From: Escherichia phage phAPEC8
Sequence record: NC_020079.1
Length of the DNA stretch: 64,000 nucleotides
Direction: 5' to 3' (one strand)
Made by a program: the position numbers and the translations under genes. Positions 3-50,176 of the stretch are shown here, piece by piece. A model generated the notes under the pieces. That model was not told the origin of the DNA and made no database searches. It was given only the letters and a program-made list of their open reading frames with translations. The first letter of the stretch is position 1, and every line of letters starts with the position of its first letter.

Positions 3-68
3 TCGAGCAATATTCCTGCACTTACTGTTTTGACAATGGCAAACATTAGTGTGGACGTTACCGAGTAA
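3..68 (+). CDS. 3' end of an upstream gene truncated by the window start
   Basis: Open frame from window edge to TAA at 66-68, followed by RBS AAGGGG and the ATG at 77. Confidence 0.3.
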   Translation, partial: SSNIPALTVLTMANISVDVTE

Positions 69-76
69 GGGGTAAA

Positions 77-2230
77 ATGAAACAAGCTATATTTACTGTC
101 ACGCGAGACAAGAGAGTAAATGCGAGTTCATTTAACTACACGACTGTTGATGGAACAGCAGTCGCTGGTAGAGATTATATTGCAAAATCGGGAACACTTG
201 TGTTCCCTGATGATGCTGATTCTGCTACCATTGTGGTTGAAGTATTTGAACGACCAAAGAACTCAATAGATCTTAACTTCTCCCTCCAAGTTTCAGGGAT
301 TAGTCAAAATAATATGATGGTTGAAACAACCATCAATTGTATTATAACTACTATCCAAGAAAATACTACTCCAATAACTTGGACTACAAAAGACGTTAAA
401 ATGTTCTCTCCTATGTATTGGACAATAGATTCTCAAGCAACGGAAAGTTGTTCTATTGTATCTCATGGAGACTCTTTTACTGCAAGATTTGTAAACAGAA
501 CAACAGCAGGTTTGGCAGGGGTTATCTGGAGCACAGTTGACAAATATGACCATAAAGGTGTTGGGTATTTACCCCACACAGATTTAAGTTCAGAGAAACT
601 TTGGTTTAAAATGGAAATTAGTCAAAACATGCCAGGTTTTAAAGAAGAACCTTTGGTGCCGACTTTGACTGTAACTCTCCTGGATAAAAGTGTTCATTAT
701 GTCAGTTTAGGATTCTACGCTTCAGATATTTCAGAAGATGGTAAAACAGCTACAATCAAGTTAGATTTTGGTAATATCTTTTCTGGCCCTAATAATGATA
801 TTCCTTTGGATATGAGTGCTGTAGATAATATTTTCTTCTCTTTGATTACAGCAAGGTATGAAGAAATAGAAGAGGTTGTACCTATTGACAGTCAAGAGGC
901 TTGGTTTACTTTCACTCTTCTTGAACCTACTTCTGGTTACAGTATGATGAAAGTCAGCAACCTTGTCCAGCCTGAACATGATATTCGCATGTGCACATCT
1001 TATGATGATATGTATAACCTGACTCCAGAGAGAGTTATTTATAATACATATGCACTAGGTTATCGTGGGATGATTAACCATTATAACGGAATGTCTCACT
1101 ATTATGAGTTCTCATGGAATGGAACATCTTGGGCTTTAAATAAATCTGTTTTCCTGAATCCGGCTACAGAAGCTTGGCTTAACAGCTTTCATTCTATAGC
1201 AAACGAGAAGGGCTACACAATAATGAACTCTTTAAGTTTTGAATTGATGAGCACAGTTTGTCCTGTAGAATGGGTCCAGCATGATTGGAACGATGCTCTT
1301 GCAGCAACAGGGTATAAACCTCCTAGTTATGTGTTGTCTCCAACTATTGACGAAGGTATGGAATATTTGCAAAATGTTATTAATAAAATAGCATCTATTT
1401 CTCAAGCTAACAATATTCCAGTCGTCATTCAAATTGGTGAACCTTGGTGGTGGTATAATACAGCAAGTAAAATGCCTTGCATATATGATTACACTACCAA
1501 ACTGGCATTCAACACAGAAACAGGTTTATTTGCACAAGATGCAGGAACAATAGATAATTATAAAACAGGAACGCCGTTTGACGAATACTATGCATTTTTG
1601 TCTCGTAAACTAGGATTAAGAGTTACAAAGTTTGCAACAGATCCCAGAGCAACTTACCCAGGAGCCAAGGTAACATTGCTTCCGTTCTTGCCATCAATTA
1701 TCGGCAACGGTTTGATGGAGAAAGTTAACTTTCCGTCTGATTACTACATTCCTGAAACTTTTGATTTTTACTGTTCAGAGTGTTACGACTGGCTTCTGGA
1801 AGGTAAAATGATGAAAGCATTCGATGCAATTACCATACCACATGAAAAATTAGGTTTTGAATATTCTGATATTCACTATCTTTCGGGTTTTGTTCCAGAT
1901 GCTACTCTTGCACCTTTGTATGGCTTCGATCCTGAATCAAACTACCGAACGTATCTTTGGAAAATGATTATAGGCAATATAGTATTGAACGCCAACAAGT
2001 TTGACGGACTTACACAATATATATGGGCCTATCCTCAAATAATGCACGATTCCATCACGGTAGTTAATTCTCAATCTCAAGTTTTCTATATGGGTAACGT
2101 GCCTTTGAACGTTTATTTACAGGATATCACTCTTAAACAGGTAAATGTTGAGATTGCCACCATAAGTGGAATTACATTAGCCACTAAATCTGGAGAAGAT
2201 TTGGTAACAACACAAAAATTTTATATATAG
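77..2230 (+). CDS. Large virion-associated protein with N-terminal Calx-beta-like domain (fibre/adhesin-like)
   Basis: 717 aa ORF; N-terminus FNYTTVDGTAVAGRDYIAKSGTLVFPDDADSATIVVEVF resembles Calx-beta motif; heads a run of fibre/spike genes. Confidence 0.45.
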   Translation: MKQAIFTVTRDKRVNASSFNYTTVDGTAVAGRDYIAKSGTLVFPDDADSATIVVEVFERPKNSIDLNFSLQVSGISQNNMMVETTINCIITTIQENTTPITWTTKDVKMFSPMYWTIDSQATESCSIVSHGDSFTARFVNRTTAGLAGVIWSTVDKYDHKGVGYLPHTDLSSEKLWFKMEISQNMPGFKEEPLVPTLTVTLLDKSVHYVSLGFYASDISEDGKTATIKLDFGNIFSGPNNDIPLDMSAVDNIFFSLITARYEEIEEVVPIDSQEAWFTFTLLEPTSGYSMMKVSNLVQPEHDIRMCTSYDDMYNLTPERVIYNTYALGYRGMINHYNGMSHYYEFSWNGTSWALNKSVFLNPATEAWLNSFHSIANEKGYTIMNSLSFELMSTVCPVEWVQHDWNDALAATGYKPPSYVLSPTIDEGMEYLQNVINKIASISQANNIPVVIQIGEPWWWYNTASKMPCIYDYTTKLAFNTETGLFAQDAGTIDNYKTGTPFDEYYAFLSRKLGLRVTKFATDPRATYPGAKVTLLPFLPSIIGNGLMEKVNFPSDYYIPETFDFYCSECYDWLLEGKMMKAFDAITIPHEKLGFEYSDIHYLSGFVPDATLAPLYGFDPESNYRTYLWKMIIGNIVLNANKFDGLTQYIWAYPQIMHDSITVVNSQSQVFYMGNVPLNVYLQDITLKQVNVEIATISGITLATKSGEDLVTTQKFYI

Positions 2231-23797: not shown

Positions 23798-23813
23798 AAG
23801 GGCCGAAGCCCTT
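23798..23813 (-). other. Hairpin at the primase-helicase stop
   Basis: AAGGGC-CGAA-GCCCTT overlapping the stop codon. Confidence 0.35.
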
Positions 23814-25590
23814 AATAGTTGCTATCCGTAGGCAAATTAGCAGGATTGTTGAAATACTGCTCTTTGTCATGCAGAGTTGCAGTTCTAATGTCATAGTAAA
23901 ACTGCCCTGCCGGACCAGTTTCTGAGAACTCACGGTTTTTTAGGATAAAGCAATGAGTCGTATTGCGTTCTACAGGGTCTTCAGCGGCTTTATCTCGTTC
24001 CAAAGCCAAGGTAATACCAGCACCTTTAGCCAAGAAACTACTACCCATTGCATCGTCCTCTGTTAAGTGTTCATTGCCACCATTAGCCGATTTCTTAACG
24101 TGTGAGATGACAATAATAGTTATAGCATACTCTTTCATGATGCGCTTCAACCATGTTGCTAACTCTTCCTGGGCTTGAACATCCATACCAGAAAGCAAAT
24201 CAGAATAAGGGTCGATAACAAGAATTGTTACTCCAAAATAGATGATCATCTCCAAAACTTTTTCTTTGATAGACTCCACATCTGCTCCACGATCATCACA
24301 CACATAAAAACGTGGTGATCCATCTTCTCTTTCGTAAAAATCTAGGATTTTTTCTTTATTCTCTTCCAAGATTTGAAATTTCTCTTCCGGTGTTTTCCTG
24401 TGTAGAGGAATATGCAGGAACGAGGACAACAGGTTACGAGAATATTTCTTATAAGTTGCTTCCAAGGACAGAATACCTAGGGTATGTTCTGGGTGCGCAA
24501 CAATAATATGTTTGGTGATCTCGTTCACCATCAAAGTTTTACCGATACTGGTCTTTGCCAGGATAACTGTAATCTCTTCCTCTACTAAACCACCACCCAG
24601 CATATTTGCAGCAACACGCATAAAAGGAGGCAAGGTAATCATCTTGGATTCCAAGCATTCTAATGCAGCTTCATACAAGACATTAGAAGCATAAACACCT
24701 GCTGGGGTGTATAGACGAGCACTCCAAAAAGCTTTTACGAAATCTTTTGCACGACCTTCTTCCAGATACTGATTGGCATCCTTAAGATCCATCTGCATAC
24801 GGTAGACTTTGTTACGAGGCAACACCTTAACAATATTTTCAAATGCCTCATTACCTGCTTTGTCATTATCCATGCAAACAATAATCTTCTTAAATTTTTC
24901 AAAGAAAGGATATTGTGCCTGAACTTGTTTATACATACTGGTTTCACCAGTTGTGCCACTAACTACTGCTGGAAGTTCATATTTGTTGTCCAAGTTTTCA
25001 GACAGCATTTGATAAGCTGCCAGAGCATCGTGTTCACCACCTGTAATTACCACAGTATGAGAACGGTCTGCAAAACGAATTTGTCCAAAAAGATCTACAT
25101 CTTTACCTACTTGACCAATAGGTTTACTGAAATCTTTAGGATGAATACGACGCTTAAAACCAACCAATTCTTTACCGATAGTAGTTGGATATAAACAACT
25201 TTCTACTACCATCTGATCCCCTTCCTGGCGGTATTCATAACGAACACCATAGAAAGATGAAACTTTTTCTTTAATGCCTCGATAACCACGTGGGTTGGTT
25301 GATGTTTCTTGAACAATTTTACGATGAATCTGTTTATTAAATTCCGAACCCACAATCTCCTCCTCTTCTTCTAAAACTTCACCATTTTCTCGTAACCATT
25401 CTACGCTAGGAATAGTGTATTCACACGCAAAGCACTTAGCACCTTTATGCTCTCCATTAGAATCTAATCCATAAACCATCAGGTTATTACGAGAGCGATC
25501 CTTGCCATTTTTCATGCAGCGCGGACAACCTGTATGTCCTTCCTTGCTAAGATCAACATCAAATCCATATTTAGTTATAATGTGCGACAC
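23812..25590 (-). CDS. Bifunctional primase-helicase, T7 gp4-like
   Basis: 592 aa; N-terminal Cys4 zinc ribbon (CPRC...CFAC); central primase region; C-terminal DnaB-like helicase with Walker A-like AKTSIGKT. Confidence 0.75.
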   Translation of the reverse strand: MSHIITKYGFDVDLSKEGHTGCPRCMKNGKDRSRNNLMVYGLDSNGEHKGAKCFACEYTIPSVEWLRENGEVLEEEEEIVGSEFNKQIHRKIVQETSTNPRGYRGIKEKVSSFYGVRYEYRQEGDQMVVESCLYPTTIGKELVGFKRRIHPKDFSKPIGQVGKDVDLFGQIRFADRSHTVVITGGEHDALAAYQMLSENLDNKYELPAVVSGTTGETSMYKQVQAQYPFFEKFKKIIVCMDNDKAGNEAFENIVKVLPRNKVYRMQMDLKDANQYLEEGRAKDFVKAFWSARLYTPAGVYASNVLYEAALECLESKMITLPPFMRVAANMLGGGLVEEEITVILAKTSIGKTLMVNEITKHIIVAHPEHTLGILSLEATYKKYSRNLLSSFLHIPLHRKTPEEKFQILEENKEKILDFYEREDGSPRFYVCDDRGADVESIKEKVLEMIIYFGVTILVIDPYSDLLSGMDVQAQEELATWLKRIMKEYAITIIVISHVKKSANGGNEHLTEDDAMGSSFLAKGAGITLALERDKAAEDPVERNTTHCFILKNREFSETGPAGQFYYDIRTATLHDKEQYFNNPANLPTDSNY

Positions 25591-25602: not shown

Positions 25603-25881
25603 TTAAAATGGTTCGTTAGTCTCCATCATATATTCTGCTTCTAGTTCTTCCATATGCTTTCTAAATTGGAAAGCAATTTCTGCTACAGTTACATTTAAAT
25701 CTTTTTCAAAAACTTCTGTAGAGCCTTCATAAAAACGAATACCGTCAATTAAAAGCCCTCCGTGGTAATCCCAATCACTTTCACGAGAAAGCGGGTTAGG
25801 CTCTTCATAATAGTAATCCACCTCCACGACTAAAGCTTTCCCGTTACGAGCGGTGTATTCAAAATCAAAAGTGTTAATCAT
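25603..25881 (-). CDS. Hypothetical protein
   Basis: 92 aa, start-overlapping the upstream gene. Confidence 0.35.
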   Translation of the reverse strand: MINTFDFEYTARNGKALVVEVDYYYEEPNPLSRESDWDYHGGLLIDGIRFYEGSTEVFEKDLNVTVAEIAFQFRKHMEELEAEYMMETNEPF

Positions 25882-26825
25882 TATAGCTCCTCAAATAAAA
25901 GTCTACGACGCTCATTCAACACATCAATGTGATAATGAGTCCTGACATACTTAGCTAATGCTAATCCTTTCTCCATGCAAACATCGGGAGCACTTAATAA
26001 GTATTCCGTAATATCTTTCCACTCGGAAGGTGTTTCAGCAAAGAATAACAAATCTTTAAACTCTTGTGTATGATAATTCTCACGAGGAGAACAGATCAAA
26101 GGTAAACCCTTAGCACCTGCCTCAAGAATTTTAAGATTGCTTTTTGCATTATTAAACACGTTATCAATCAATGGCGCAAGACTGATTTGATGACCATCGT
26201 AAGATTCCATGTAGTTGGCATATGGTCTTACACCTTCATAAACACAAGTTGGTGCTACATTTTCTCTGATTACAGACCATTCACGACTACTTAAAACTTC
26301 AGAATCCCTACGAAAACCACATATTGTAAGATCTTTACCAAAATCGGGCAAGATAGCCAAGTCTTGTTTATGTGTTTCACTTCCAGCCCAGACTAATGGA
26401 GTTTTGGAGTAGCGATCACGGGTCAACACAAATTGACCTTCATCGTAAGGAAGTCCATTAGGGATTATGTGCACATTATCATTGTATTGTGAAAGTTCAA
26501 CTTGCAAAGCAGGTGTCGTAGTTGTAACGAGATCGCTGTGCTCTAAAAACCATTTTAAATGTTCACGAATACCTGATTCAAAAATACCTTCTAACATGTG
26601 TCCTTTTGGAATAACTAAAGAGTCATCCAAATCCATAACCATTTTAAAGCCTAGGTTTTTAAGGGCTAAAAAGCCCTCTTTACCTTTTGTTGGCACCCCG
26701 TTAAAAACGAAAACGTTGTGTTTAGGTTGTGAAGAGAACTGCCTTGAGTAAGGCAGCACTACTCTATGGAAATCGCAGACACTATAATTGATTCCGTTAC
26801 GATTGTCAAGAATTATTTGTCCCAT
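25881..26825 (-). CDS. GT-B fold glycosyltransferase (group 1-like), paralog 1
   Basis: 314 aa; C-terminal KILEAGAKGLPLICS resembles the group-1 donor-binding motif; paralogous to the next gene. Confidence 0.5.
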   Translation of the reverse strand: MGQIILDNRNGINYSVCDFHRVVLPYSRQFSSQPKHNVFVFNGVPTKGKEGFLALKNLGFKMVMDLDDSLVIPKGHMLEGIFESGIREHLKWFLEHSDLVTTTTPALQVELSQYNDNVHIIPNGLPYDEGQFVLTRDRYSKTPLVWAGSETHKQDLAILPDFGKDLTICGFRRDSEVLSSREWSVIRENVAPTCVYEGVRPYANYMESYDGHQISLAPLIDNVFNNAKSNLKILEAGAKGLPLICSPRENYHTQEFKDLLFFAETPSEWKDITEYLLSAPDVCMEKGLALAKYVRTHYHIDVLNERRRLLFEEL

Positions 26826-26832
26826 ACTTCAC

Positions 26833-27783
26833 CTACAAACTTTCAATAACCTGGCGTCGCAACTCGTTTGCATCTGCCAGATTATAATGTGTTCGAACAT
26901 GTTCAGCCAAGAACAAGCCACGATCTTCCCGATAGTTTGGATTGCGAAGAAGCTTAACAATTTCGTAATGCCATTCTGCTTTATTCTCTGCGTAAGCAAC
27001 AGCGCGAGCATCTACAGGGTTAAAATAAGGTAATACCTTAGAACAAACAATTGGAATACCTTTTGCTCCAGCTTCCAGGATTTTGAGATTACTTTTACAA
27101 TTATTAAAATCGTTATCTACCAAAGGAGCTATAGCAATAGCATGACTTTCGTAAACACTCATGTAATTATCTAAATCTTTTACAGCGGCTTTATATTTGG
27201 CATTTGGTAAATTTCTGCGAATCTTAATCCACTCTTGTCCTGTGATGCTTTGTGATGCTTCATATCCCGCAATAGTAAGAAGTTCATCATCGAAAGTATT
27301 AGAGACTAGTCGTAAATCGGGTTCGTGACTAGCACCGCCAGCCCATACAACAGGGGTACCGGATGAACGATCATTTGACAAAGTGAATTGTCCGCTATCA
27401 AAAGGAAGTGCATTTCGGATCACAACAACATTCCTATTTAAGTGGCGGATCTTATATGCCAAATATTCCGTAGTCACAATAACCACATCAGCAAGCTTAA
27501 CCATAGCTACAATAGCATGAGTGTTTGACTCGTATAGACTTGCTAAATAATGTTCTGGATTGAGTTGGTAGAAATCATCTAAATCTACAACAATCTTAAC
27601 ACCTTGACGTTTCAAAGATAAAACGTATTCTGCACCTTTAGAGTGGATACGGTTAAACACAACAACATCTTTCTTAGGTTGAATATTATTGTTGTTAAAG
27701 GGCATAACAATACGATGATAGTCACAACCGCTATGAGGTTTTGCATCAATTTTTAGTTTAGACCATTTTTTTTTATTTGACAT
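26833..27783 (-). CDS. GT-B fold glycosyltransferase (group 1-like), paralog 2
   Basis: 316 aa; KILEAGAKGIPIVCS; shared CD(F/Y)HR(V/I)V, VWAG, NxxxNxKSNLKILEAGAKG blocks with paralog 1. Confidence 0.5.
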   Translation of the reverse strand: MSNKKKWSKLKIDAKPHSGCDYHRIVMPFNNNNIQPKKDVVVFNRIHSKGAEYVLSLKRQGVKIVVDLDDFYQLNPEHYLASLYESNTHAIVAMVKLADVVIVTTEYLAYKIRHLNRNVVVIRNALPFDSGQFTLSNDRSSGTPVVWAGGASHEPDLRLVSNTFDDELLTIAGYEASQSITGQEWIKIRRNLPNAKYKAAVKDLDNYMSVYESHAIAIAPLVDNDFNNCKSNLKILEAGAKGIPIVCSKVLPYFNPVDARAVAYAENKAEWHYEIVKLLRNPNYREDRGLFLAEHVRTHYNLADANELRRQVIESL

Positions 27784-43613: not shown

Positions 43614-43635
43614 AAAAAAGGCGCAAAGTGCGCCT
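43614..43635 (-). terminator. Rho-independent terminator (- strand)
   Basis: + strand AGGCGCA-AAG-TGCGCCT preceded by an A-run, giving a U-tract on the - strand transcript. Confidence 0.5.
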
Positions 43636-43642
43636 TTAAGTT

Positions 43643-45031
43643 TTATCGTTTGGAGAGGAATTGTCTTCCCATGATCTTACCGTTCTTTACAGCGGTCCCA
43701 TCGTGTCCATTATAATCCCAAGTTCCATCAATGTTACGCAAGAAGCTATCACGAACAGTGTAGGCTTTACCGTTCTCTACTTTACTTTCTTCAACAATGA
43801 TTGCCATAACAAGCTTATTTTCAATTTCGGTAGTAACCGATTCTTTAATACCCTCTGTAACTTCACGATCATATTGGATATAAACTCGCTCCTCGGTTAC
43901 TTGCACATCAACCACATTTTTAAATGTGTATGTCTGTTGTGTAGTGTAGAGGACACGAACGACACTCTTCTTACCTACCGGAGGCTTCTTACGAGGCTTA
44001 CGGTAACGTGGTTTAGGGTTGTTAGTTGGAAGCCAACCAACAATATCCCGATCATATCCAACATGACCCCAAGTGAAATGCGTAGCCGATCCACTATCCG
44101 TAGTTCCGTCACGAAAGAGAACTTCTACGTGACCACCACAAGGGCGGTGTCCACCATTATTATAGTTGTATTTTGCCGTGCGCGGGAGAATGAAGTATTC
44201 TTTAATCGCCCACTCTTCCAGATTGTCGATATTCCAAGTGAATACTGTTCCCTTAGCAACATCTGTTTGACCATTGTTGAAGCGAACCTGCACGAAATCT
44301 TCTGAAGGCATAACACCTGTGTTCGGAAGATATTCAAATGCAGTATCTTCCGCTACAAACTGTTCTTCCTCTTGCTCCTCAATACTTGGCACAGGCGCAG
44401 CTTCATCGTATTTCGCAGCAAACATATTTTTAAATTCTTGAGCCGTGACTTCTACAAGGCCGCGATCACCAGTAGCAGCAGAGTGTGGGCGTGGTAAATC
44501 CCCAACTTCAATATGCATTGCATCTAAGCCTGCTTGACGATCAAAGAAGATAACCTTGCGGAATTGTTTATCTTTATATTGTGGCAGTTCATACATACTT
44601 GGGTCGATTGTCTTCAAACGTTCAGCATCTTCTGGCTTCCAGAAGCTTTTACCTGTTGCAAATCTAAAGTCTACCAGTAGTTTAACAACATCTCCTAATG
44701 ATAACCTATCTGCATCTACGAAAACGTCTTCGATTCCCAATAACCCTGATTTCTTAAGAATCAGATCTAACATGTAACCTCCTGTGGTTTGTTCTGCGTC
44801 TGGATAACGATCAACACTGGTGCTGGTTACACCGTTTATTTCACCAGTGGAGGCATTGTAGGAAATATATGGGAAGGTCATATCGTTCATTGCAAAATCA
44901 CCTGAACAGGTTGGATCATCTTCTCCCTCCCAGCCATACACCTTCACAATACCTTCACACAATTTGTCATACACACCAGCGCGACGTGCTGCTTCAGCAA
45001 CTTCCTGTTTACGGGCAAATTTATTAATCAT
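43643..45031 (-). CDS. Large hypothetical protein
   Basis: Start set at ATG (MINKFARK) behind AGGAGG; about 462 aa. Confidence 0.4.
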   Translation of the reverse strand: MINKFARKQEVAEAARRAGVYDKLCEGIVKVYGWEGEDDPTCSGDFAMNDMTFPYISYNASTGEINGVTSTSVDRYPDAEQTTGGYMLDLILKKSGLLGIEDVFVDADRLSLGDVVKLLVDFRFATGKSFWKPEDAERLKTIDPSMYELPQYKDKQFRKVIFFDRQAGLDAMHIEVGDLPRPHSAATGDRGLVEVTAQEFKNMFAAKYDEAAPVPSIEEQEEEQFVAEDTAFEYLPNTGVMPSEDFVQVRFNNGQTDVAKGTVFTWNIDNLEEWAIKEYFILPRTAKYNYNNGGHRPCGGHVEVLFRDGTTDSGSATHFTWGHVGYDRDIVGWLPTNNPKPRYRKPRKKPPVGKKSVVRVLYTTQQTYTFKNVVDVQVTEERVYIQYDREVTEGIKESVTTEIENKLVMAIIVEESKVENGKAYTVRDSFLRNIDGTWDYNGHDGTAVKNGKIMGRQFLSKR

Positions 45032-45581
45032 GATTCCTCCTATTAATTGCCATAGATGCACGAGGTTCGGCTATGGCTGTTGCATAAATATATGGATGAC
45101 CTTGTGGGGACAATCTTGTTCCGAATGACCCTAATTCTAAACCATTCATGTCTTCCACGTCAAGCCCTATTTCTGTTTCTACAATTCTTGTTTGGACTTT
45201 GTAGTAGGTCCAGAAGAAGTATCGCATTTCTTCGGCATACTCTTTCACTTCACCAAAGCTGGGATAGAACTCAATCAACTCCAGCTTCAAGAAGATGTTG
45301 AAGTGAGAATCATCCAACACTTCCTCTGTGCGGTAACATGGTGTCAGGGCCATGTAGGGATGACCAGCGATAAACTCGTAGCCATCCTTTTCCATTTGCA
45401 AGAATGATTGCTCGGCACTGGCAACATAAAACTTCCCATTAGGATGCCCCAAAGGAGCATCTTCTTTGCCAGGTGGCAGTGTGAATGCCAAAATATCTGC
45501 ATCCACTAAATAAGGAACATCTAACATTTCAGCAAAGCGTCCATAACTCTGGATGGCTTCGGCAATCACACCTGTGTTCAT
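45024..45581 (-). CDS. Hypothetical protein
   Basis: 185 aa ORF. Confidence 0.35.
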   Translation of the reverse strand: MNTGVIAEAIQSYGRFAEMLDVPYLVDADILAFTLPPGKEDAPLGHPNGKFYVASAEQSFLQMEKDGYEFIAGHPYMALTPCYRTEEVLDDSHFNIFLKLELIEFYPSFGEVKEYAEEMRYFFWTYYKVQTRIVETEIGLDVEDMNGLELGSFGTRLSPQGHPYIYATAIAEPRASMAINRRNHD

Positions 45582-45829
45582 GACCTTCCTCCTGTGCGAA
45601 ACGCACGTTTAGTAATGTTTGACATAATGATCAAATCTTGTAAAGTCGTACCTGGGAACTGTTGTTCTAACACTCCCTCGACAGCACCTATAATATCAGA
45701 TAGTTCAACAAGTTGCATTATTTTGCAATCCTGTTCAACAGCATCGAAAAGTTCTTCCACTTCCTCTTTAATCTTTTCTATGCTTCCGTAAGATTGTTTC
45801 TTAATGTCTGTTATGTGATACCCTGCCAT
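45578..45829 (-). CDS. Possible MazG-like nucleotide pyrophosphohydrolase domain protein
   Basis: 83 aa; EEVEELFDAVEQ...ELSDIIGAVEGV resembles the MazG/HisE helical EExxE..D motif pair. Confidence 0.3.
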   Translation of the reverse strand: MAGYHITDIKKQSYGSIEKIKEEVEELFDAVEQDCKIMQLVELSDIIGAVEGVLEQQFPGTTLQDLIIMSNITKRAFRTGGRS

Positions 45830-47422
45830 TTAACGATCCTCTCTGATTTGATTAATCTTACGAGCAAGGGCCGCTATAAGTTTATCTTCTTCAGATACAG
45901 GAGCCGTGCTCTTACCTAAACGATGCATGTCTAAAATCTCTTGAACAGTTCGGTTCCATTGCAGGCATTTAATACAACGTGTATGTGCAACATACAGAAG
46001 ATTTCGTTCTGATTCTTCAAGACCTACCCACTCACCCTTCTTATCATAATTGGAAGGAAAGTCATTTGCAACAATAACCTGATCCCATTCCAAACCTTTT
46101 GATTTGTGGGCTGTAGTTAAAGTAACTTTAGCCGTTGGAGAGTTACGGTGCATACGTAAAGTATATGCAATATTATTAGCTTTACCAGAAACAACAATGT
46201 TTAAAAGTCGTTTTGCATCAGGATCTGATTCTGCACACTCTACAAATTCTTCCCAAGAAGTGTAAGGGAGAACTGTCTCATGCTTAACTTTGTCCAAATC
46301 ACCTCTACGTAAAGCATTAACACTATCAACCATAGAAATGAAATCTTTGGTATCTACGTTAATAATAATCTCTTCTCCGTTAGCGATTCGGTCCATAGCT
46401 TCGAGCAACAGAGTCAAATTCTTACGGAAAATAATGGTGTAAGGTTTACTATAATCTACCACATCAGAATGAAAACTTCCAGTGACAGTATCATAACCTT
46501 TGCCTACCAGCGGATGCTTCAGAGGTGAACGATCAGAAAGGATCGCATTAGCAATTTCCGCAACTTTAGGACCAAAGCGAAAACAAGCTGTCAGAGGCAA
46601 CTCAACCCCATATGTAGCCGTTTGCTTCATCATGTTCTGGCTTCCACGGAACTGATAAATACTCTGAAATTCATCACCCACAACAACAATACGTTTAGCC
46701 GATTTAGCATTGCGAAGGATAGACAGGAATGCAGGGTTAACATCCTGGAATTCATCTCCGAAAATAATATCATATCCTAAGTCTTCTTTGCTCAATTCAA
46801 ATAGTTTCACATAGGTGTCATGAGTCATAATTGTTTCTGATTTAGGATCAATACGCTCACGCCAAAGTTGCTTCGCATATTTAACAACTTCGTTAATAAG
46901 TTTTTGTTCGTTGATGTTTTTACGTTTTAGGTCTGACATATGCACTTTAGGAAAATGTTTATGTCCAATATGTTCATCGTCAGAAAACTCATATTTAGCT
47001 AAAGTTTGTTTGACCATTAACCCGATCATTGCACGAGTCAGTAGCACTTTACCATTCTTATCGATCAAGTTCTGAATCTTGAATTTCTTGGCAATCTCAC
47101 TACCAGTTCCAGCTACGTTAACATATTGACCTTCTGGACGAGATAATTTGTGTCGAAGGTTTTGTGGAAGACGCTGGTAACAGATAGAATGTAGCGTTCG
47201 GCACATAACATTAGGCGGCATTTTACGTCGAGCTTCCTCTGCCATACTTTTGTTAAATGCCAAGTATAGAATACTATCATTTGTGCCATTAGCCAACATA
47301 TACAGTGTTGACGTTTTACCTGATCCAGATTTAGCTTGAATTGTAACGAAACGATTTTCTTTATACCCGCTTTCAATAGCGTATTGTTCCTCGGTAGGTG
47401 TAAAACTCAATTGTGTAGACAC
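45830..47422 (-). CDS. SF1 DNA helicase, UvrD/PcrA-like
   Basis: 530 aa; FTPTEEQYAI...IQAKSGSGKTSTL (motif Q/I, Walker A) and VVVGDEFQSIY (motif II). Confidence 0.6.
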   Translation of the reverse strand: MSTQLSFTPTEEQYAIESGYKENRFVTIQAKSGSGKTSTLYMLANGTNDSILYLAFNKSMAEEARRKMPPNVMCRTLHSICYQRLPQNLRHKLSRPEGQYVNVAGTGSEIAKKFKIQNLIDKNGKVLLTRAMIGLMVKQTLAKYEFSDDEHIGHKHFPKVHMSDLKRKNINEQKLINEVVKYAKQLWRERIDPKSETIMTHDTYVKLFELSKEDLGYDIIFGDEFQDVNPAFLSILRNAKSAKRIVVVGDEFQSIYQFRGSQNMMKQTATYGVELPLTACFRFGPKVAEIANAILSDRSPLKHPLVGKGYDTVTGSFHSDVVDYSKPYTIIFRKNLTLLLEAMDRIANGEEIIINVDTKDFISMVDSVNALRRGDLDKVKHETVLPYTSWEEFVECAESDPDAKRLLNIVVSGKANNIAYTLRMHRNSPTAKVTLTTAHKSKGLEWDQVIVANDFPSNYDKKGEWVGLEESERNLLYVAHTRCIKCLQWNRTVQEILDMHRLGKSTAPVSEEDKLIAALARKINQIREDR

Positions 47423-47960: not shown

Positions 47961-48371
47961 TTAGTTTACATCGTTTAGAGCATTACCAATCTTTAAGATA
48001 ATAACATCATTAAGAGCTTCTTCTCCATTAAGGCCAGAGAAAGCAGGAGTAACGAAAGTTACCATATAATAATGGTCTTCTTGTAGGATTGCGATAACGC
48101 CGTCTAGTTTAACATCTCCTGTGAAACGAAAAACTTTCAACTTTTGTTCTAAAGGAAGATCTCCTTCAACATTTAAAACCATATCTCCGACACCAAACCT
48201 TTCTGCCCCGATGTAGATGTAAGCTTTGTCCTCTTTTTTATGATAATACAATGTTGCTTGTTTGTCTTGTAGTGTTGTGATACCAAACACATCTACATCA
48301 ATAATATTTTTCAAAAATTCTCCTCCCAAATCCAATAATTGTCTACATAAGTAGGATGCCTTTTGTCCCAC
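47961..48371 (-). CDS. Hypothetical protein (start uncertain; overlaps upstream gene by 60 nt as tracked)
   Basis: 136 aa ORF. Confidence 0.3.
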   Translation of the reverse strand: MGQKASYLCRQLLDLGGEFLKNIIDVDVFGITTLQDKQATLYYHKKEDKAYIYIGAERFGVGDMVLNVEGDLPLEQKLKVFRFTGDVKLDGVIAILQEDHYYMVTFVTPAFSGLNGEEALNDVIILKIGNALNDVN

Positions 48372-48679
48372 TCTTTTCTAGCCCAAGCTACGGCTGCTAC
48401 CAATACATCTCCATGACAAGGTTGAGGTGAGCAGTAGCAAACTAAATCTTTCCCTTCTAACTCTAATAAATCTTCAAGAGTGATCTTACCACAACGAATT
48501 TGCTCCCACAACCACTCTTTATACCTTTGTATGGTTGATCCTCGTGGTTCATCATCTTTTAACTTAAAAGGATTTGCAAACTTAGAGGCTTTTAGTCCCA
48601 TATGTGGCATTGCTCTACCAATATAAACAGCACCCTCTGGGATTGTTTTGCCTAAATGGTAAAAGTTTAATACCTTCAT
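48311..48679 (-). CDS. Conserved phage protein with CxC...CHG motif (DUF4326-like)
   Basis: 122 aa; LVCYCSPQPCHGDVL. Confidence 0.35.
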   Translation of the reverse strand: MKVLNFYHLGKTIPEGAVYIGRAMPHMGLKASKFANPFKLKDDEPRGSTIQRYKEWLWEQIRCGKITLEDLLELEGKDLVCYCSPQPCHGDVLVAAVAWARKEWDKRHPTYVDNYWIWEENF

Positions 48680-50094: not shown

Positions 50095-50176
50095 TTATAA
50101 AATCTCCTTAGTAAGTGAATCTTTATTCTACACAAAGAGCTTTGCACATGTCAAGTAACTCTTTGTCAGATTAGTC

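Follow-up and report, generated by a model that had tools for sequence, protein, structure and literature searches.

Atd1 (anti-TIR defence 1) is a MazG-like pyrophosphatase of Pectobacterium phage PcCB7V described by Ho et al., who screened phage open reading frames (ORFs) located within four genes of phage nucleotidyltransferases (NTases). According to this preprint (bioRxiv 10.1101/2022.06.09.495361), the purified protein hydrolyzes ppGpp with a Km of about 50 uM, does not hydrolyze ribonucleoside triphosphates (rNTPs), c-di-GMP or cGG, and releases pyrophosphate from ppGpp and not from GTP. In cells, Atd1 decreased a (p)ppGpp reporter, protected from TIR-STING toxicity and restored the plating of T5 on a retron-TIR strain. 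A second point of reference is FBH1, a helicase in which the 2B subdomain is reduced and divergent (PMC12946210). We compared with these systems a stretch of 64,000 nucleotides (nt) from Escherichia phage phAPEC8 (sequence record NC_020079.1), referred to throughout as the window, in which the minus strand encodes, in order of transcription, a compact UvrD-family superfamily 1A (SF1A) helicase of 530 amino acids (aa), an 83-aa MazG/HisE-like protein (p83) and a 185-aa protein resembling the catalytic core of class II seryl-tRNA synthetase (SerRS), here p185. The first two had been pointed out in an earlier note on this DNA, and both are confirmed as minus-strand ORFs that coincide with annotated coding sequences in near-identical GenBank phages; that note had placed the MazG-like ORF upstream of the helicase, while in the direction of transcription it lies immediately downstream (3'). 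The helicase and p83 genes are thus already known and annotated, and it is the module formed by p83 and p185 that holds real discovery potential. We lean toward reading the locus as two functionally separate things that are co-transcribed in phAPEC8-like phages.

To define the partners of p83, we analyzed 40 loci containing p83 relatives, of which 25 came from IMG/VR, 3 from metagenome contigs, 5 from annotated phages and 7 from a GTDB genome scan, several of them being near-duplicates. A p185 homolog lies within ~1 kb of the p83 relative in 37 of the 40, usually directly downstream with an overlap of 1-4 nt and sometimes upstream, and in two loci (L020 and L026) the two proteins are fused as one ORF with p185 first. 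The three exceptions consist of a single variant that was fetched twice (L028 and L029) and L030, where the sequence of the locus stops at the match. The helicase, by comparison, is found within 6 kb of p83 in 7 of the 40 loci, all of them close relatives of the window from the Phapecoctavirus/Justusliebigvirus lineage. Across a phage database of 50,697 records, p83, p185 and the helicase are present in 267, 271 and 267 records, respectively. The genus profiles of p83 and p185 are alike (Escherichia ~110, Acinetobacter ~60, Caulobacter 13, Pectobacterium 10 and Cronobacter 8, among others), whereas the helicase occurs in addition in 54 Pseudomonas and 19 Vibrio phages and is absent from those of Caulobacter, Pectobacterium and Cronobacter. 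Small ORFs located 3' of distant helicase homologs in PAK_P5, Shewanella 1/40 and AbaM_P1 are not p83-like, with negative scores. Taken together, co-occurrence and genus profiles indicate that the adjacency of helicase and p83 is lineage-specific synteny and that p83 and p185 form a conserved functional unit; the partner of p83 is very probably p185 and not the helicase.

The pairing implied by the earlier note, in which the helicase and the MazG-like protein would act jointly in DNA repair or replication and p83 would sanitize the (d)NTP pool for the phage replisome, draws on the layout of the window, where the helicase stop codon (TAA) directly abuts the p83 ATG with a spacer of 0, both genes share one operon, and this operon runs on into anaerobic ribonucleotide reductase genes, a nucleotide-metabolism setting. 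House-cleaning of nucleotides is, moreover, the classical role of the MazG family. We nevertheless consider such a pairing very unlikely, since the adjacency belongs to one lineage, distant helicase homologs precede unrelated small ORFs, and the phage distributions of the two genes differ. Atd1, the sole homolog that has been tested, was inactive on rNTPs according to the preprint text, in which we saw no report on dNTPs; this leaves the sanitizing of the nucleotide pool unsupported, at least for rNTPs.

When the 332 ORFs neighboring the module were clustered all against all to find a conserved third gene, a single family recurred in at least three loci with otherwise unrelated neighborhoods. 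Its members, of ~480-550 aa (L013:3952-5607, L018:10696-12132 and L021:10159-11601), look like nicotinamide phosphoribosyltransferase (NAMPT/NadV) when judged by eye. A scan of 100,044 species genomes with narrow peptide patterns returned seven loci, all from metagenome-assembled genomes or short contigs and all with the p83-p185 pair; they offer no informative bacterial context, such as toxin-antitoxin genes, although the narrow patterns make this absence weak evidence. The module appears to be largely confined to phages and phage-like contigs. One contig (L045:1-6112) carries a large dCache/PAS/HWE histidine-kinase gene and, ~2 kb farther downstream, a tandem-domain p83 of 182 aa together with p185; it may be bacterial (a prophage or island) and not a free phage. 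Genome papers list genes of the p83 and p185 type separately, as for phage RXM, and we found no joint discussion of them; nor did we find in the literature searched a description of SerRS or a class II paralog linked to a MazG-like protein. The combination of a MazG-like protein with a mini-SerRS seems, on this basis, to be undescribed.

Several loci carry p83 in other architectures. A 184-aa ORF in L028 (5989-6543) and L029 consists of the N-terminal half of p83, up to and including the ELSD helix, fused to a GGQ domain (SGPGGQKKNK) of the release-factor or peptidyl-tRNA-hydrolase type. A radical S-adenosylmethionine (SAM) domain is recurrently fused to the p83 N-terminus (L011:5299-6243, P0095, P0101 and P0223). 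The models nearest to this domain are MoaA, a tungsten-cofactor maturase, QueE and viperin, all far under their cutoffs, and an assignment to a subfamily was rejected because the generic SAM-binding core alone matches. In an extended cassette (L044:610-4338), a radical-SAM-p83 fusion is followed by a Metallophos phosphoesterase and by a p185 that is interrupted by an in-frame stop; next come a 131-aa ORF and another radical-SAM protein, which is MoaA-like.

We hold it to be highly probable that p83 belongs to the MazG/HisE all-alpha pyrophosphohydrolase superfamily, although none of the tests crosses a formal threshold when taken singly. The note's description of the 83-aa ORF as MazG-like depended on conserved acidic metal-binding residues, and these are present as E22-E23-x-x-E26-x-x-D29 followed by E42-x-x-D45. 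Across 86 p83 relatives, E22, E23, E26, E42 and D45 are invariant together with Y4, H5, K19, Q33, T73, F77 and R82, while D29 is retained in at least 90% of the sequences. The motif in the form EExxE(12-28)ExxD is found in 119 of the 150 top representatives of the family, which is large: a profile built from 21 sequences and searched against 1.84 billion proteins gave 1020 cluster representatives with E <= 1e-3. Of the profile searches that had been proposed, the one for UvrD-type helicases succeeded (see below) and the one for MazG remained sub-threshold, with p83 scoring 17.1 bits against a gathering score of 21.3 for Pfam PRA-PH/HisE (E 0.0076). The PHROG nucleotide pyrophosphohydrolase profile gave 0.007, and the PHROG to which p83 itself belongs, 6408, is labeled ‘unknown function’. 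Among the 86 relatives, 14 match Pfam PRA-PH weakly (best E 6.7e-4) and one matches MazG. PDB sequence searches with either the single sequence or the 21-sequence profile returned chance matches only and no MazG/HisE structure, NCBIfam and PADLOC held no match for p83 or p185, and a cluster look-up of ten p83 representatives yielded no names. The AlphaFold model of p83 (predicted local distance difference test score 89.9) contains three helices, and the top eight Foldseek matches to it are all HisE or MazG structures, led by 2a7w with a probability of 0.97, with a best E of 0.76 and none of them significant; the structural neighbors include HisE 2a7w, 1yvw and 7bgn and MazG 2yxh, 3cra, 1vmg and 7yh5. 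Tandem-domain relatives of p83 keep the acidic residues in one copy and have lost them in the other. Such forms resemble the two-domain MazG of E. coli, which suggests that the single-domain forms dimerize.

An alternative is that p83 is not an enzyme and instead regulates or scaffolds p185 as a small subunit, much as the synthetase paralog HisZ regulates HisG. The tight linkage and fusion with p185 would fit such a role, as would the mere three predicted helices and the database thresholds that p83 does not reach. We regard this as highly improbable in view of the acidic metal-binding residues, of which five never vary and D29 rarely does among the 86 diverse sequences, the recurrence of the motif among the top representatives, the tandem forms in which one copy is preserved while the other decays, and the catalytic activity reported for Atd1 in the preprint text. 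We also considered p83 as a carrier protein acting through S44 of ‘ELSD’ and rejected this, as S44 lies in the middle of a helix in the model and the arrangement of acidic residues agrees with MazG.

The connection of p83 to Atd1 runs through the anchor NTase of PcCB7V, listed as QQG33502.1 in Table S1 of the preprint (bioRxiv 10.1101/2022.06.09.495361). Two genes downstream lies QQG33500.1, an 86-aa protein annotated as ‘phosphoribosyl-ATP pyrophosphatase’, which is the only MazG-clan signal within four genes of the anchor. From gene position and annotation, we infer that QQG33500.1 is Atd1, and because p83 is 51.9% identical to it over 81 aa, p83 would fall within the Atd1 family. PHROG 6408 would thereby probably be linked to the experimentally characterized anti-defence enzyme Atd1, and the size and spread of the p83 family suggest that large myophages and jumbo phages commonly manipulate (p)ppGpp or related nucleotides. 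The guess made in the earlier note that the small ORF might degrade alarmones agrees with the ppGpp hydrolysis reported for this probable family member. In the main text of the preprint, as accessible to us, SerRS is not mentioned, and we found in it no reference to a partner gene for Atd1.

The partner p185 corresponds to the catalytic core of a class II aminoacyl-tRNA synthetase of the SerRS-like type, with motifs 1, 2 (fRxE) and 3 (GxGxGxxR-type) present. Its match begins at approximately SerRS residue 183-206, past the tRNA-binding coiled-coil arm, and the window protein reached no Pfam or NCBIfam synthetase model. Conservation follows the motifs: P23 of motif 1 is nearly invariant; S55-A-E57 forms a TxE-like element in which S55-x-E57 is invariant; motif 2 reads TPCYRTE (TPC(F/Y)RxE in the family) with C82 and R84 invariant; and E149, S152 and the motif 3 residues T168...R174 are invariant as well. 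We take these invariant residues to correspond to the ATP, Mg and serine ligands of SerRS. As read from its sequence, p185 appears to be a catalytically competent mini-synthetase and not the tRNA synthetase that some GenBank records label it, and it could prove to be the smallest functional class II synthetase-like enzyme known. A predicted model of the fused p185+p83 protein has a predicted template modeling score of 0.73, which is not decisive by itself.

The 530-aa protein is almost certainly a UvrD-family SF1 helicase with intact motifs, as had been recognized from the sequence. The Pfam domains UvrD-helicase (1.4e-19; 71.3 bits against a gathering score of 23) and UvrD_C (7.4e-11; 42.5 against 25.6) are both identified above their gathering scores, the protein matches phrog_1967 ‘DNA helicase’ at 2.2e-161, and all motifs are present (Table 1). 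Their key residues are invariant in eight aligned phage homologs with identities down to 31%, which include those of Pseudomonas PAK_P5, Shewanella 1/40 and Acinetobacter AbaM_P1 and metagenomic sequences. The accompanying description as a ‘full-length’ UvrD/PcrA-type enzyme does not hold, given a length of 530 versus ~720 aa, a short stretch between motifs IV and V, and scores of 19-54 bits for the NCBIfam uvrD, pcrA, rep and helD models, far under their cutoffs of 419-1168. A PDB search placed FBH1 first (9xzj_F, 4.1e-34), ahead of UvrD (1.9e-7), PcrA (6e-4) and Rep (2.8e-3), and by the E-values of this one search the helicase core is nearer to human FBH1 than to bacterial UvrD, Rep or PcrA. 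In alignment coordinates, the motif IV-V segment spans ~115-127 aa in the phage helicase, ~126 aa in FBH1 and ~250 aa in Deinococcus radiodurans UvrD, so that the short phage segment fits the reduced and divergent 2B subdomain of FBH1. Matches to the defence genes GajB, RTasHel and AbiO (NCBIfam/PADLOC) were rejected, since they arise from the generic UvrD core alone.

By homology, we would expect the helicase to be a single-stranded DNA motor that moves 3'-5'. The replicative helicase of the window is the gp4-like protein at 23.8-25.6 kb and not the 530-aa protein, and the presence of such an enzyme besides the UvrD-type one, also claimed previously, is borne out (Table 1). Neighbors of distant homologs of the 530-aa helicase include genes for DNA ligase, thymidylate synthase, dCMP deaminase and dNMP kinase. 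Sister alleles of the helicase, with exteins 65-100% identical, contain in-frame inserts of ~290-350 aa with Hint, Intein_splicing or LAGLIDADG domains. These occupy one site in or just after the Walker A loop, at ~residue 36-41 (P0233 and P0273), and another inside motif III, between GDEFQ and SIYQFRG after Q253 (P0236, P0335 and P0346); L007:3177-5990 is also an intein-bearing relative, and the window allele has no intein. The position of inteins in the Walker A and motif III sequences of sister alleles indicates strong constraint on these motifs and suggests a probably important enzyme.

We propose that, early in infection, the operon would supply an accessory FBH1-like SF1A helicase for phage DNA transactions, predicted to work as an active accessory motor in phage replication or recombination, for instance in fork remodeling or in the clearance of recombinase or other proteins from DNA. 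A dimer of p83 would probably build a metal-dependent active site in a four-helix bundle and probably strip pyrophosphate from a (p)ppGpp-type nucleotide early in infection, which may weaken the stringent response of the host along with the abortive-infection pathways relying on it. In this activity, p83 would act with the SerRS-like, adenylating p185 as a two-enzyme, phage-borne module. That ppGpp itself is the physiological substrate of p83 is a tentative proposal, to which we give somewhat less than even weight. The analysis itself establishes the gene structure, family membership, motif conservation, co-occurrence and fusion, and ppGpp hydrolysis and anti-TIR protection have been shown by others on a homolog; we infer the activity of p83, its dimerization, its physical or functional coupling to p185 and all roles of the helicase.

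Several points weigh against this explanation. None of the matches between p83 and MazG or HisE passes a curated or statistical cutoff on its own, and the p83 model has three helices versus four in classical MazG domains. The identity of Atd1 with QQG33500.1 is positional and is not stated in the accessible text of the preprint, and the Atd1 data themselves come from a preprint, one assay type and over-expression (bioRxiv 10.1101/2022.06.09.495361). A cyanophage MazG was reported not to hydrolyze ppGpp, as given by a title cited in PMC8953757, so the substrate is not safely transferable within the superfamily. Hydrolysis of ppGpp leaves the tight link to a catalytically intact SerRS-like enzyme unexplained, and it does not explain the radical-SAM and GGQ fusions of p83. 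As for the helicase, a specific role has no support from any experiment or genomic association, and the junction-binding R447/K448 of FBH1 subdomain 1B, which FBH1 requires for fork reversal, aligns to Q86/N87 of the phage protein, in a loop where the alignment is gapped; a conserved basic patch, RHKLSR at 89-94 with K92 invariant, follows Q86/N87.

The surroundings of the module bring in a second possibility, namely that p83 and p185 repair tRNA, with p185 gripping the acceptor CCA end or A76 and p83 removing a 3'-pyrophosphate added by a toxin of the toxSAS/CapRel type, ppGpp hydrolysis being an in vitro surrogate. Pyrophosphorylation of tRNA 3' ends by toxSAS is established (PMC11245113), and the release of pyrophosphate by Atd1 from ppGpp, and not from GTP, fits removal of a 3'-pyrophosphate. 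There are tRNA genes within 6 kb of the module in eight fetched loci (L033, L003, L015, the near-duplicates L018/L019, L021, L024 and L039), as a raw count. In Caulobacter phage CcrBL9 (L033, 4983-5808) the pair sits inside a tRNA cluster, in PcCB7V the genes close to the module include those for a CCA-adding enzyme, a Pth2-like hydrolase and the RlaP ‘RNA repair’ NTase, a class I TyrRS/TrpRS-family gene comes next in L003, and the p83 N-terminal half is joined to the peptidyl-tRNA-hydrolase-type GGQ domain mentioned above. Conversely, p185 lacks the tRNA-binding arm of SerRS and its motif-2 loop appears shortened, and the 64-kb window contains zero tRNA genes, as most loci also do. We judge tRNA repair to be improbable as it stands.

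A biosynthetic role for the module would make fuller use of p185, which could adenylate a serine-like amino acid and transfer it to a nucleotide or another acceptor, with p83 shortening a triphosphate or pyrophosphate; the result, a modified nucleotide or small molecule, would serve in DNA or RNA modification or in signaling interference. All class II catalytic residues are kept in p185, which suggests real adenylate chemistry, and the recurrent radical-SAM fusions of p83 point in the same direction in that the nearest models include the nucleotide-using MoaA, QueE and viperin, if far under curated cutoffs. The extended cassette in L044 and, close to the module in L005, genes resembling those for Mom and nucleoside deoxyribosyltransferase are further in its favor. 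The pair has no conserved third gene beside it, however, and in the available preprint text Atd1 alone gave both phenotype and activity. To our knowledge, no modified base has been reported for phAPEC8-like phages. This role is, in our estimation, also an unlikely one.

In a more far-reaching reading, p83 and p185 would constitute an undescribed two-enzyme system coupling adenylate-forming class II chemistry with pyrophosphate removal, the target of which would not be free ppGpp but the tRNA 3' end, reversing toxSAS/CapRel-type pyrophosphorylation, or an aminoacyl- or modified-nucleotide product. The ppGpp activity of Atd1 would then be a side reaction, and the radical-SAM, Metallophos and GGQ fusions and neighbors would be expanded versions of the pathway. 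We put this forward as a speculative possibility that is on the whole rather unlikely. Understanding the p83-p185 pair could revise the mechanism proposed for Atd1.

The features of the locus are given in Table 1. Many E. coli myophages of the phAPEC8-like type have complete genomes that match a 3-kb stretch around the helicase and the 83-aa ORF at 97-99% identity, the closest being Escherichia phage PNJ1809-36 (99.1% DNA identity), and the group to which the window phage belongs is Phapecoctavirus, Stephanstirmvirinae. In GenBank relatives, the helicase is annotated as ‘putative UvrD-type helicase’ and, among records from dozens of phAPEC8-like phages, a few name the small ORF ‘MazG-like’ or ‘phosphoribosyl-ATP pyrophosphatase’. 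The minus strand holds all genes from ~18 kb to ~52 kb. The stop codon of p83 (TGA) and the start codon of p185 overlap as ATGA, and p185 is followed by the 472-aa ORF, the hairpin, nrdD and nrdG. Near-consensus sigma70-like promoters lie on the minus strand at 50154, 51672 and 52237, directed into the minus-strand block. These promoters, together with the terminator after the 472-aa ORF, fit an operon read by host RNA polymerase.

Table 1. Positions of features at and around the helicase-p83-p185 locus (window coordinates) and of the helicase motifs (residues of the 530-aa protein)
Feature	Position	Strand	Remarks
Compact UvrD-family SF1A helicase, 530 aa	47422..45830	-	GTG start; Shine-Dalgarno sequence GAGAGGAG before start
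p83, 83-aa MazG/HisE-like ORF	45829..45578	-	Identical to phAPEC8_00225
p185, 185-aa mini class II SerRS-like core	45581..45024	-	
472-aa ORF	43643..45061	-	Last gene of transcription unit; GenBank relatives start ~30 nt further in
Intrinsic-terminator-like hairpin	43617..43637	-	9-bp stem, 5 GC pairs, T-run
gp4-like DNA primase/helicase	25590..23812	-	phrog_239 2.4e-164; DnaB-like phrog_19 1.3e-20
Helicase motif Q	Q13		
Helicase motif I	30-38		AKSGSGKTS
Helicase motif Ia	52-64		
Helicase motif II	223-227		DEFQD
Helicase motif III	246-260		VVVGDEFQSIYQFRG
Helicase motif IV	281-284		FRFG
Helicase motif V	437-449		TAHKSKGLEWDQV
Helicase motif VI	474-482		NLLYVAHTR

Other features of the window and its relatives were also observed. 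GC skew changes sign at ~18 kb and ~52 kb, as do the strands of the inspected ORFs, and the sigma70-like promoters from ~50-52 kb are consistent with an early region transcribed by host RNA polymerase. The 472-aa ORF is called ‘ribonucleotide reductase’ by PHROG 15930 and GenBank and is without a match in Pfam or NCBIfam; its sequence has drifted much faster than the genes beside it, with identities of 58% (L038) and 37% (L006) where flanking genes remain at 83-99%. In an IMG/VR relative, the nrdD homolog (L007:8332-10412) aligns with NrdD of the window as two segments (residues 2-291 and 286-604) that lie ~270 bp apart and may reflect an intron or small insertion. A DUF4326 protein (Pfam 1.3e-21) is encoded at 48311-48679 (-), ~0.9 kb upstream of the helicase, and a DUF4326 homolog is located directly downstream of p185 in an Erwinia-phage-like locus (L010:6814-7140). 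Adjoining the primase-helicase gene, two adjacent paralogous ORFs of 314 and 316 aa (25881-26825 and 26833-27783, both -) each match PHROG 7162 ‘glycosyltransferase’ at ~1e-145 and represent a tandem duplication.

Compared with described helicases, the phage protein shares the SF1A motif set and Pfam domains of UvrD, Rep and PcrA, but is ~190 residues shorter (530 versus about 670-725 aa), has about half as many residues separating motif IV from motif V, and ends without a long C-terminal extension. Its core aligns to residues 374-668 of FBH1 (the N-terminal core) and 794-870 (motifs V-VI), and the 2B-holding stretch between the aligned parts is of similar length in the two proteins. Unlike FBH1, the phage helicase has no F-box, zinc ribbon, PIP or APIM and no ubiquitin-ligase context: FBH1 residue 374 aligns with phage residue 12, so that only 11 residues precede the aligned core, which leaves no space for an F-box or zinc ribbon. 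An FBH1-like phage helicase would give this non-canonical SF1 subgroup a model that is small, consists of one chain and comes from a bacterial virus.

With the MazG and HisE families (PF03819 and PF01503), p83 has in common the EExxE...ExxD motif on two antiparallel helices. It differs in lacking the first helix of the four-helix unit, in place of which there is a conserved N-terminal G-Y-H segment, in carrying a conserved C-terminal T-x-R-A-F-x-x-G-x-R, and in forming a large family of its own that stays under the Pfam gathering scores. Like Atd1, taken as QQG33500.1, p83 is a small single-domain phage protein (83 versus 86 aa) with the common motifs EEVEEL.DA and VE(L/M)SD, and PcCB7V too has a SerRS-like p185 homolog ~1 kb downstream; the 64 kb of the window, in contrast, contain no homolog of the PcCB7V NTase, CCA-adding or Pth2-like genes. 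At 185 aa, p185 is smaller than SerRS and than Bll0957 (an amino acid:carrier-protein ligase), HisZ, AsnA and EpmA. It has neither a tRNA-binding arm nor an anticodon-binding domain, and it is set apart from SerRS and the truncated class II paralogs by its obligate link to a MazG-like protein.

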